Shown piece by piece: positions 58,251-58,911 of a stretch of 64,000 bases of DNA. Made by a program: the position numbers and the translations under genes. Under the pieces are notes generated by a model. It searched no databases, was not told the origin of the DNA, and saw only the letters and a list, made by a program, of their open reading frames with translations. Each line of letters begins with the position of its first letter. The first letter of the stretch is position 1. The DNA lies in assembly GCF_040110915.1 (NCBI RefSeq), contig NZ_CP157793.1:258939-322938 (forward strand). Direction: 5' to 3'. This DNA comes from Stappia sp. GTDB taxonomy: Bacteria > Pseudomonadota > Alphaproteobacteria > Rhizobiales > Stappiaceae.

Positions 58251-58679
58251 TCAACGCCGGGCGGAACGTGGTCTTGCCGCGTTCCGGGACCGGGTGAAGA
58301 GCGCGAGGGCCTGCGCCGGGTGCCGGGCGGCGATGTCGCGCAGCAGCGGCTCGTCGATCGCCTTTCGGCAGCCGCTTGCCCACAGGCGCAACTGGGCGGC
58401 CAGTCGGGCGGAGCGTTGCGCGGCGGAGAGCCTGCCGGTCTGAGCAGTCCCGGTTTCGCGCAAAGCCGAGGCGGCGAGTCCGGTCATTCGCATTCCAAGC
58501 GCCAGCACCCGCAGTTCCGCCAGCGTGGGGCCTGCGCGCCCTTGCGCCGGGAGGATGCGTGCCGGCTCGCGTTCGCGGCGCTGCCCCTGCGGCTCAGGAC
58601 AACCGTCGGCAGCGCGGCTTTCGGACGAGGCGGAGGACGGTGTGAGGGACGCGGCTGGGGACGCGGCGGGGGTGACCAT
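58251..58679 (-). CDS. Riboswitch-preceded hypothetical protein (142 aa)
   Basis: AAGGAGG Shine-Dalgarno 8 nt before ATG 58679; GC-rich third positions; no family recognised. Confidence 0.55.
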   Translation of the reverse strand: MVTPAASPAASLTPSSASSESRAADGCPEPQGQRREREPARILPAQGRAGPTLAELRVLALGMRMTGLAASALRETGTAQTGRLSAAQRSARLAAQLRLWASGCRKAIDEPLLRDIAARHPAQALALFTRSRNAARPRSARR

Positions 58680-58680
58680 T

Positions 58681-58711
58681 AAAAAATCCTCCTTCGGTTT
58701 CCCGAGGAGGA
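58681..58711 (-). terminator. Expression-platform hairpin: intrinsic terminator that also sequesters the SD
   Basis: UCCUCC-UCGG-GAAA-CCGA-A-GGAGGA followed by U6, then AAUG. Confidence 0.8.
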
Positions 58712-58739
58712 CTGGCGCGTTTGCGGGGATCGTCTCGAA

Positions 58740-58876
58740 GCCGCTTCGTTGCCGCAGATGCGGCCACATCCCCGTGAGCGGTGCGCAATCGGAACGATCC
58801 GTTGCGTCCGTCCGTCAGGGAAACCACCTTGCCCGGCGGGCAGGTTGGCGAGGGCGCCAGCCCTTCTCTTGATGAC
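58740..58876 (-). ncRNA. SAM-I/IV-variant-like riboswitch aptamer
   Basis: Minus strand: CAUC-AAGAG, P2 AGGGC/GCCCU, P3 GCCAACC...AAGGUGGU with inner UGCCC/GGGCA, extended P4, GAUG, P5 GCCGC-AUCU-GCGGC, AACGAAG, then CGGC able to pair with GCCG at the P3 apex. Confidence 0.78.
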
Positions 58877-58882
58877 GGATGG

Positions 58883-58911
58883 GTTGTGCCATGGCCGGCC
58901 GGCCCGTGCAA
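58883..58911 (-). promoter_or_regulatory. Candidate sigma70-type promoter for the riboswitch leader
   Basis: TTGCAC-N17-CACAAC, placing the start site at about 58876, just before P1. Confidence 0.4.

Follow-up and report, generated by a model that had tools for sequence, protein, structure and literature searches.

Riboswitches of the SAM-I/IV class usually form the leader of genes for the metabolism or transport of methionine, cysteine or S-adenosylmethionine (SAM), and the ligand of a riboswitch tells when the protein encoded behind it is needed. What, then, is being regulated when such a leader precedes a gene that belongs to no family? The question is raised by a stretch of 64,000 nucleotides (nt) from Stappia sp. 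(contig NZ_CP157793.1, positions 258,939 to 322,938), hereafter the window, on whose minus strand a first-pass annotation, made from the letters of the DNA, described a SAM-I/IV-like leader followed by an unassignable open reading frame (ORF) of 142 amino acids (aa); all coordinates given here count from the first nucleotide of the window. We consider it likely that the locus is an autonomous, monocistronic unit composed of its own promoter, a SAM-I/IV riboswitch and the 142-aa gene, which SAM would repress through an anti-sequestor able to invade helix P2 of the aptamer. The class assignment by covariance model, the conservation and covariation of the helices, the two alternative pairings, the selection acting on the coding sequence and the coupling of riboswitch and ORF directly support this reading, in which we infer SAM as the ligand, the OFF logic, the kinetic nature of the decision, the activity of the promoter and the role of the protein. 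Read in this way, the riboswitch would call for the protein once SAM is exhausted. New biology has repeatedly come from uncharacterised genes that follow riboswitches, and this module offers a testable handle on a fast-evolving orphan family of marine Stappiaceae (Stappia, Roseibium, Polymorphum and Hongsoonwoonella).

The riboswitch class and its aptamer

When the whole window was scanned with all 4227 Rfam families, a single match exceeded its gathering score: RF01725 (SAM-I/IV), at 58880–58735 on the minus strand, with 50.5 bits against a gathering score of 41.1 and an E-value, referring to that scan, of 2.6e-05, in agreement with the class first proposed. The alignment spans the full length of the model (positions 1–99 of 99), and the leader has a folding z-score of −3.35 against shuffled sequences. 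All of the elements named by the first-pass annotation, promoter-like hexamers included, lie where it had placed them on the minus strand. P1 consists of 4 base pairs (bp) between CAUC (58871–58874) and GAUG (58767–58770), the latter placed by both the Rfam alignment and an alignment of 19 leaders in which the 4 pairs are unchanged; the outermost P1 pair of the Rfam model is a U-U mismatch here. The junction J1/2 reads AAGA(G) and leads into P2 (58850–58866; G-A-AGGGC-UGGC-GCCCU-C), a continuous stem of 6 pairs that bulges out one A and is capped by a 4-nt loop, free of internal loops or kink-turns (K-turns) and invariant among relatives. A complement to the P2 loop, as pseudoknot PK-1 would require, was not seen in J3/4 by inspection only; such a complement sits in the expression platform. 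P3 (58823–58849) contains the asymmetric CAACC/GGUG loop, and its apical loop carries the strand GCCG (58834–58837) of pseudoknot PK-2. Inside the junction stands P4, a hairpin of 50 nt (58771–58820; folding energy −21.8 kcal/mol), about 46 nt between P3 and the P1 3′ strand being counted as an insertion by the Rfam model. Its outer and inner stems exist as first described, but they are not perfect, since the outer one (CCCUGACGG / CCG-C-UCA-C-GGG) has two bulged C and the inner one a bulged A. The aptamer is completed by P5 (58751–58764; GCCGC-AUCU-GCGGC) and by a tail (58740–58750) made of AACGAAG and the PK-2 3′ strand CGGC (58740–58743), which complements GCCG of the P3 loop (58837–58834).

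The SAM-I/IV class (RF01725) was described by Weinberg et al. 2010 (PMC2864571), and the crystal structure of a metagenomic representative is summarised in PMC6890682. In these RNAs P2 has no internal loop or K-turn and PK-1 is missing (PMC2864571 supplement; PMC6890682), and a P4 helix is present in the solved structure (PMC6890682). This anatomy is exactly what is found in the window, where a SAM-I-type core is combined with an unbroken P2, no PK-1, a P4 in the junction, a P5 located 3′ of P1, and PK-2. The window differs from the usual members of the class in its orphan small-protein gene, which takes the place of a methionine or SAM gene, in the unusual length of its P4, and in a frozen P2 and J1/2 that would double as platform partner.

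The SAM-I riboswitches of Firmicutes (S-box, RF00162) have a P2 K-turn and PK-1, lack P5 and PK-2, and classically employ an antiterminator that competes with the P1 3′ strand. The window shares with them the ligand-binding core, the four-way junction and, in our reading, an OFF logic with an intrinsic terminator; unlike them, it has an unbroken P2, P5 and PK-2, a competing strand that would invade J1/2-P2, and a terminator that contains the Shine–Dalgarno (SD) sequence, and RF01725 stays the best model within the Rfam clan. The SAM-IV riboswitches of Actinomycetales (RF00634) have no P4 and a P2 split into P2a and P2b with PK-1 (PMC6890682); P5, PK-2, a mostly translational control and a high-GC host are common to them and the window, whereas P4 and the unbroken P2 set the window apart. 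Other SAM riboswitches of the same bacterial class have the same ligand and SD-sequestering logic, but their folds are unrelated (H-type pseudoknots) and they precede metK, metX, metZ and similar genes; none of the H-type-pseudoknot SAM classes matched in the window in the Rfam scan.

All of the strongly conserved core of RF01725 is matched (CAU, AAGAG, CAACC, A-GGUG, GAUG, the GG/C closing P5 and the CAA..A tail), one A of the P2 loop being the single upper-case position of the model without a match. By its conserved features, the RNA is a genuine, canonical SAM-I/IV riboswitch, and SAM is the ligand to be expected from the conserved core, because this core is unchanged, unlike that of the published spermidine sensors. 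The first-pass annotation had seen in the GCC/GGU at the base of P3 a variant aptamer with a possibly altered ligand; these nucleotides fall on positions that are variable in the Rfam model, and the suggestion loses its basis. More generally, the aptamer could be a specificity variant sensing S-adenosylhomocysteine, decarboxylated SAM or a polyamine rather than SAM, a view encouraged by the atypical gene association, with no methionine, cysteine or SAM gene, and by the rare SAM-I look-alikes with unusual gene associations that bind spermidine (PMC10853860). The spermidine riboswitch derived from SAM-I resembles the window in placing an aptamer of the SAM-I superfamily before a gene other than a classical SAM or methionine gene, but it carries changes at conserved ligand-contacting positions and stands before polyamine genes (Salvail et al. 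2023, PMC10853860), whereas the core in the window is unchanged and the gene an orphan. Published variants differ at precisely such positions, and here the core is matched, with 47.8–69.3 bits among relatives; a change of specificity is accordingly very unlikely.

Matches to RF01725 above the gathering score were found in every scanned locus that encodes a relative of the 142-aa ORF: 13 genomes of Stappia and Hongsoonwoonella and 2 metagenome contigs have one at the corresponding position, and it recurs in 5 more contigs with other neighbour genes, and in Polymorphum gilvum, Roseibium aestuarii and R. salinum. The 3 Pannonibacter loci scanned gave no RF01725 match. In the alignment of 19 leaders, standard pairing is observed in 95% of the cells, against 38–54% when the 3′ partners are slid by 1–3 columns, and four pairs have changed on both sides, in distal P3, P5 (two) and the SD hairpin of the platform (one). 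The changes in P5 are C-G to G-C in 5 leaders, with G-U and U-A variants besides, and more distant members have different and extended P5 helices. PK-2 is paired in 94.6% of the cells, wobble variants included; it reads GACCG/CGGUC in most leaders, the lineage of the window having lost the A and U of one pair to give GCCG/CGGC. The length of P4 ranges from 10 to 51 nt among relatives and its sequences are unrelated, but it always folds into a hairpin with CC(C)/GG(G) as closing pairs. Between aptamer and platform lies a linker (58719–58739 in the window) of 6–37 nt without sequence conservation among relatives; in one locus (L087, 800–860) the PK-2 tail region is repeated in tandem within it (AAGCGGUCGAACACC twice), which creates two possible pseudoknot partners for the P3 loop. 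By contrast, P1, J1/2, P2 and proximal P3 show no variation in the 19 leaders, and in the 5′ half of the aptamer about 45 nt are the same in lineages with proteins of only 25–40% identity. Synonymous sites are conserved far less than the RNA, synonymous divergence (pS) reaching 0.67 beside near-identical aptamers.

The expression platform and its alternative pairings

The leaders share a platform of the form GCGCCAG-UCCUCCUCGG-(GNNA)-CCGAnGGAGGA, usually followed by U5–U7 and then by the start codon. In the window the hairpin UCCUCCUCGG-GAAA-CCGAAGGAGGA (58687–58711, minus strand) has a 10-bp stem with 7 G-C pairs and a 1-nt bulge (−17.8 kcal/mol, RNAfold), includes the SD GGAGG (58688–58692) and runs directly into U6 (58681–58686), a tract that is U5–U7 in most relatives and also spaces the SD from the AUG; one nt, and not two as had been stated, separates U6 from the AUG. 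Sequence and predicted fold give a stable G+C-rich hairpin followed by a U tract, as expected of an intrinsic terminator, which a simple terminator pattern scan overlooked because of the 1-nt bulge in the stem. In the 19 leaders 93% of the cells of the SD hairpin are paired. The dual role of terminator and cage for the SD, which the first-pass annotation had assigned to this hairpin, holds for the cage, which is conserved, and for the U5–U7 of the window's clade, but several members lack a U-run. As far as the leader sequences tell, SD sequestration is universal in the family and translational control is the conserved output, with termination a plausible added output in the window's clade. In Roseibium leaders the last U residues of the tract belong to a UUG start codon. 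This UUG start is apparent (GGAGGAUUUUUUG UCU...) in a series of Roseibium-type loci (L096, L097, L099, L101, L110, L114, L118, L119, L128, L137, L141, L143 and L144), where U-run, SD spacer and start codon overlap.

The key to the platform is the segment GCGCCAGUCCUCCUC (58704–58718, minus strand), which can pair either with J1/2-P2 (the ON state) or, via UCCUCCUC, with the SD arm (the OFF state), and which is unchanged although the neighbouring linker varies in length and sequence. Its partner in the aptamer, GAGAAGGGCUGGCGC (58854–58868, minus strand), spans J1/2 and then P2 from its 5′ strand through the loop to the second nt of its 3′ strand; over 15 positions the two strands leave one C-A mismatch and one G-U, with −27.8 kcal/mol by RNAduplex in the window, and duplexes of −18 to −27.5 kcal/mol are obtained in every platform variant. 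This includes an independent platform found in peat metagenomes, GCGCCAGCCCUC ... GG(A/G)GGG-N4-AUG, which has another sequence and no U-run but the same complementarity to P2 and SD. When the nascent RNA is folded up to the hairpin loop, the minimum free energy (MFE) structure forms this anti-sequestor helix and dissolves P1 and P2, and enforcing the anti-sequestor gives the leader a predicted energy of −93.8 kcal/mol, 6.9 kcal/mol below the −86.9 kcal/mol obtained when the ligand-free aptamer is imposed instead.

The pairing of the invariant GCGCCAGUCCUCCUC with J1/2-P2 is the real alternative pairing, and it was overlooked in the first-pass annotation, which had instead pointed to a 7-bp helix between UCCGUCA (58879–58873) and UGACGGA (58817–58811) competing with P1 and P4. 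The complementarity is real, and the helix occurs in the unconstrained MFE structure of the leader extended into the ORF. Among relatives, however, leaders with a short P4 are devoid of the partner, others keep only GUCA/UGAC or UCA/UGA, that is 3–4 bp, and nothing connects the helix to the SD hairpin, which makes switching by this route highly improbable.

In the mechanism that we propose, binding of SAM would lock the aptamer (P1-P2-P3-P4 with P5/PK-2) and leave GCGCCAG-UCCUCCUC free, whose UCCUCCUC(GG) part could then pair with CCGAAGGAGGA and bury the SD; in the window's clade, where U6 follows, the hairpin should double as an intrinsic terminator, and the gene would be OFF. When SAM is scarce, the switching segment would invade the aptamer from the unpaired P2 loop and form the 15-position helix with J1/2-P2 (GAGAAGGGCUGGCGC), an invasion that would destroy P2, free the SD arm and block termination, turning the gene ON. 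The decision between the two states would be kinetic, being taken co-transcriptionally, or would depend on capture by the ribosome. The leader would be a clean natural case of one short segment fitting three partners, the anti-SD arm, the SD and J1/2-P2, and the aptamer 5′ half would be frozen because it belongs to a chain of pairings that runs from the 16S anti-SD to the SD, the anti-SD arm, J1/2-P2 and the P2 3′ strand. The sole variation in this frozen half is found in leaders of the Hongsoonwoonella type (L010, L007 and L086), in which J1/2 is AGGAG and not AAGAG; the change lies inside the platform-pairing segment, opposite the 3′ end of the UCCUCCUC arm.

A hairpin followed by U6 should also release a stable leader RNA at high SAM, and the riboswitch leaders SreA and SreB of Listeria reportedly act in trans as small RNAs. 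The terminated leader, of about 200 nt, might by analogy be the main product, a SAM-dependent trans-acting small RNA with the ORF in a secondary role, and the roughly 45 identical nt of the aptamer would fit an extra pairing constraint. The double pairing duty of J1/2-P2 suffices, however, to account for this invariance, and several members without a U-run would release no leader at all; the hairpin encloses the SD, the ORF is never missing and evolves under purifying selection (see below), and no target was found, none having been sought. We therefore hold a trans-acting leader to be unlikely.

Several observations weigh against a switch based on invasion of P2 and against the reading built on it. 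The unconstrained MFE structure of the full-length leader retains the SD hairpin, and a partial long-range helix disrupts P2; equilibrium folding gives no ON state, and therefore kinetic control or ribosome capture is needed. The anti-sequestor is not assessable by covariation, because P1 and P2, on the aptamer side, never vary, and what speaks for this helix is its conservation and its predicted energetics. L085 (GGAGGAUAUUGUG), R. aestuarii (UUUC), L126, L127/L130, L121, L123 and the peat group have a short U-run or none, and termination is therefore not family-wide. The runs labelled as RNA-seq consist of assembled contigs with flat depth, some of 70–125 kb, and are uninformative on 3′ ends. 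Finally, a role for the protein is suggested only by its composition, its predicted fold and its regulation.

The 142-aa ORF and its coupling to the riboswitch

The ORF extends over 58251–58679 on the minus strand, with its AUG at 58679, and encodes a protein whose N-terminal half is variable, of low complexity and, by prediction, disordered, and whose C-terminal domain is helical and conserved. A word-based search returned just 2 close homologues, exhaustive phmmer against 1.84 billion representatives gave 15 clusters, and profile searches added proteins of Polymorphum and Roseibium; in every source the members are named ‘hypothetical protein’. They are united by the motif ER..RL..LW.xGC..(V/I)DE.LF.D...R, which in the window reads ER..RL..LW.SGCR.AIDE.L..DIA.RHP. 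In the set of Stappiaceae W100, G103, D109, E110, L112, D115 and R119 are invariant; in the wider family only R92, D109 and L112 are, and R89, D115 and R119 are nearly so. The AlphaFold2 model has a predicted local distance difference test score (pLDDT) of about 90 for residues 86–135 and of 60–80 in the loop 61–85. Members of the Roseibium type stop just past the motif, and the minimal unit would therefore be two helices and a turn, ER..RL..L(W)..G(C)..(V/I)DE.LFAD...R; a basic C-terminal tail is present in the window protein and in most Stappia members.

Long ORFs are abundant in all frames of high-GC DNA, and the N-terminal half of this one is of low complexity and poorly conserved; it could thus be taken for a chance open frame behind a decaying riboswitch remnant. 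The comparative data effectively refute this idea, which we rate as the least probable of all. In 11 pairs of sequences the ratio of nonsynonymous to synonymous differences (pN/pS) is 0.24–0.64, and most pairs, all the more divergent ones among them, show an excess of differences at third positions; indels keep the frame, the start codon after the SD is conserved, and the 15 phmmer clusters, the further members reached via the riboswitch, the invariant core and the confident model of the C-terminal part point in the same direction. Judged by these signatures of selection, the ORF is a real conserved gene.

The only gene downstream of the leader had been described as a basic ORF without assignment, and so it is. 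The window protein has no match in Pfam-A, NCBIfam, PADLOC, PHROGs, PDB sequences or the Foldseek libraries; 21 members compared with Pfam, NCBIfam, PADLOC and PHROGs gave only scattered single-member Pfam matches (E ≥ 0.009), a profile search of PDB nothing better than E = 0.22, and AlphaFold2 followed by Foldseek best E-values of 1.8 (PDB) and 0.92 (BFVD). The end of the motif, ...DE.LF.DIA.R, resembles what we take to be the pattern of DUF1127, a family of small alphaproteobacterial proteins, ...D..L.DIG..R (presumably PF06568). Membership was rejected and the lead dropped, no DUF1127 model being matched by 21 + 5 members in Pfam scans (E up to 5 or 1); DUF1127 genes were not found in the DNA examined, so no profile–profile comparison was made. 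Judged by these searches and by the selection acting on it, the gene is neither a known methionine or sulfur gene nor an untranslated remnant, either of which would have made the locus routine, and among the readings offered by the first-pass annotation that of a SAM-responsive protein of new function is the best. With low confidence, we favour for this putative low-SAM effector a regulatory or binding role over an enzymatic one, because the protein is small, has no recognisable catalytic domain, carries a basic tail and would be switched on at low SAM.

Two features of individual sequences concern the coding region. In the disordered N-terminus of the window protein a tandem 12-nt repeat (CCCGCCGCGTCC / CCAGCCGCGTCC; 58647–58670, minus strand) encodes PAAS-PAAS, and the closest relative (P0001, contigs of runs X2–X4) has one PAAS copy owing to an in-frame deletion of 12 nt at 58657. 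In R. salinum (L092, 3900–4228) the ORF appears to be frameshifted, with the N-terminal ..QQPFAGRAADLIDNQ..CVLAR and the conserved C-terminal ..LQLWANGCTCAVDEDLFADILNRYRP in different frames, and the database protein is the 75-aa C-terminal piece only; either the gene has decayed to a pseudogene or the sequence contains an error.

Homologous leaders and the genes behind them, which the first-pass annotation had suggested collecting, tie the protein to the RNA. The same riboswitch stands upstream in every examined locus that encodes the ORF family (>45), whatever the flanking genes, including 24 of the 24 genome or contig loci reached via the protein. In the reverse direction, metagenome contigs were scanned for an exact, invariant 28-mer covering P2, and 55 contigs were returned; RF01725 passed its gathering score in all 13 that were sampled. 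About 26 of the 55 encode a recognisable member of the ORF family (hidden Markov model E-values from 1e-7 to 1e-30), among them divergent subfamilies of marine sediments that protein searches had overlooked. A further 24 or so, of peat or soil origin, have another ORF in this place, 104–127 aa long, which starts MTAPISNHDGLITRRSILVGA... and has a twin-arginine-like N-terminus, and the remaining contigs end too early for the downstream ORF to be judged. The peat or soil arrangement, in which the same invariant half of the aptamer is followed by GCGCCAGCCCUC...GGrGGG-N4-AUG and the MTAPISNHDGLITRRSILVGA ORF, was recorded in L093, L095, L100, L103–L109, L115, L117, L120, L122, L125, L129, L133, L134, L138, L142, L145 and L147, with neighbours that vary and, by eye, include universal stress protein-like, tyrosine-integrase-like and amidase-like genes. 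The peat family has no match in Pfam or NCBIfam. Homology between the Stappiaceae and the peat ORF families was considered and rejected (hhalign probability 0.1), and the two are unrelated.

No classical methionine gene was seen behind this riboswitch subtype, which, judged by its downstream genes, is dedicated to small orphan proteins. It is tempting, if distinctly tentative, to regard the orphan protein as an unrecognised effector of SAM shortage, for example a small nucleic-acid- or protein-binding regulator, and the single SAM sensor as a master switch of Stappiaceae; were this true, the protein would relay the decision of the riboswitch to other genes. The protein of the peat Hyphomicrobiales-like bacteria, which is possibly exported, hints at a wider class of SAM-gated small proteins. 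The RNA class is already known and would be flagged by any Rfam annotation, and its architecture, variable P4 included, agrees with the published descriptions. We found no mention of an association between this riboswitch and an orphan gene in the searchable literature, as far as which shows the exclusive link to an orphan family in Stappiaceae, the second orphan family in peat bacteria and the explanation for the frozen half of the aptamer are new. Curated surveys have discarded candidates with an ‘unreasonable gene association’ (PMC5473149), which may explain why comparable cases go undiscussed.

Promoter and gene neighbourhood

Upstream of P1 the window has a promoter-like arrangement, TTGCAC-N17-CACAAC, on the minus strand. 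The −35-like hexamer TTGCAC (58906–58911) is part of a cTTGC block whose distance from P1 is constant across the loci of the family; the −10-like block ATGGCACAAC (58883–58892; TGGCAyA in relatives) lies about 10 nt before P1 and contains CACAAC (58888–58883). In most of 60 distinct upstream regions a TGGCATA block follows the −35 block after N17, and the peat group has an arrangement of its own, TTGTAA-N17-CTACAT. A strict sigma-70 consensus scan found nothing at this block, as expected for a G+C-rich alphaproteobacterial promoter. The conserved blocks suggest that the module has its own promoter.

The genes around the module also suggest autonomy. Upstream, a gene for a transporter of the major facilitator superfamily (MFS; 58927–60219, minus strand; PF07690) would form a separate transcription unit; it is absent or replaced in several relatives, and the module is present without it in L087–L092. 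Across loci the upstream position is held by MFS, slyX, ABC transporter, divergent ABM or reversed dehydrogenase-like genes. The MFS transporter of the window is 72–76% identical to those of Stappia and Hongsoonwoonella and 63–69% to those of Pannonibacter and Roseibium, and the window also carries groEL, slyX and the convergent thioesterase in the order seen in P. gilvum and Roseibium, both of which point to a Stappiaceae-like alphaproteobacterium. Contigs nearly identical to the window have turned up in marine metagenomes and among the sequencing data of cultures of other organisms.

The sole recurrent neighbour is the convergent gene for a YciA-type acyl-CoA thioesterase (57837–58247, plus strand; NF007970, E = 8.4e-47, 158.4 bits against a curated cut-off of 162; PF03061), which is missing in several lineages. 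Its stop codon lies 3 nt from that of the 142-aa ORF, and the same convergence is seen in nearly all Stappiaceae loci; in L006, L008, L009 and other Stappia loci the 3′ ends of the two genes apparently overlap by up to about 24 nt, as estimated from the ends of tblastn alignments. There is no room for a terminator between the two genes, and therefore their transcripts must overlap in antisense. The main output of the riboswitch might then be SAM-controlled convergent transcription into the yciA-type gene, that is antisense interference, with the ORF as a passenger. The close spacing would suit such a role, as would the persistence of the arrangement almost throughout the Stappiaceae loci, even in the divergent L126 and L146; synteny within one family may, however, be simple inheritance. 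The thioesterase gene is absent beside the module in L011/L013, L085, L088 (where a DUF1275 gene comes first), the sediment subfamily and the peat group, and it is the ORF itself that is under purifying selection and has a conserved motif. Interference as the main output is thus quite unlikely, and an autonomous unit acting through the 142-aa protein is the reading that we prefer.

No met gene is a consistent neighbour among the loci examined. The only methionine-related neighbour seen in any locus is the convergent gene downstream of the module in the divergent metagenome locus L127 (980–1528, minus strand), which, judged by eye, seems to encode a secreted methionine-R-sulfoxide reductase with an MsrB-like CxxC...RCGGHLGHVF motif. 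Beyond the thioesterase gene of the window, on the minus strand (56985–57593), a gene encodes a 202-aa protein with a signal-like N-terminus, Gly/Gln/Met-rich repeats and several EF-hands, for which the NCBIfam models XopAW (E = 3e-15) and LanM (E = 2.4e-10; 40.6 bits against a cut-off of 135) gave sub-threshold matches; the product may be a periplasmic protein that binds calcium or lanthanides.

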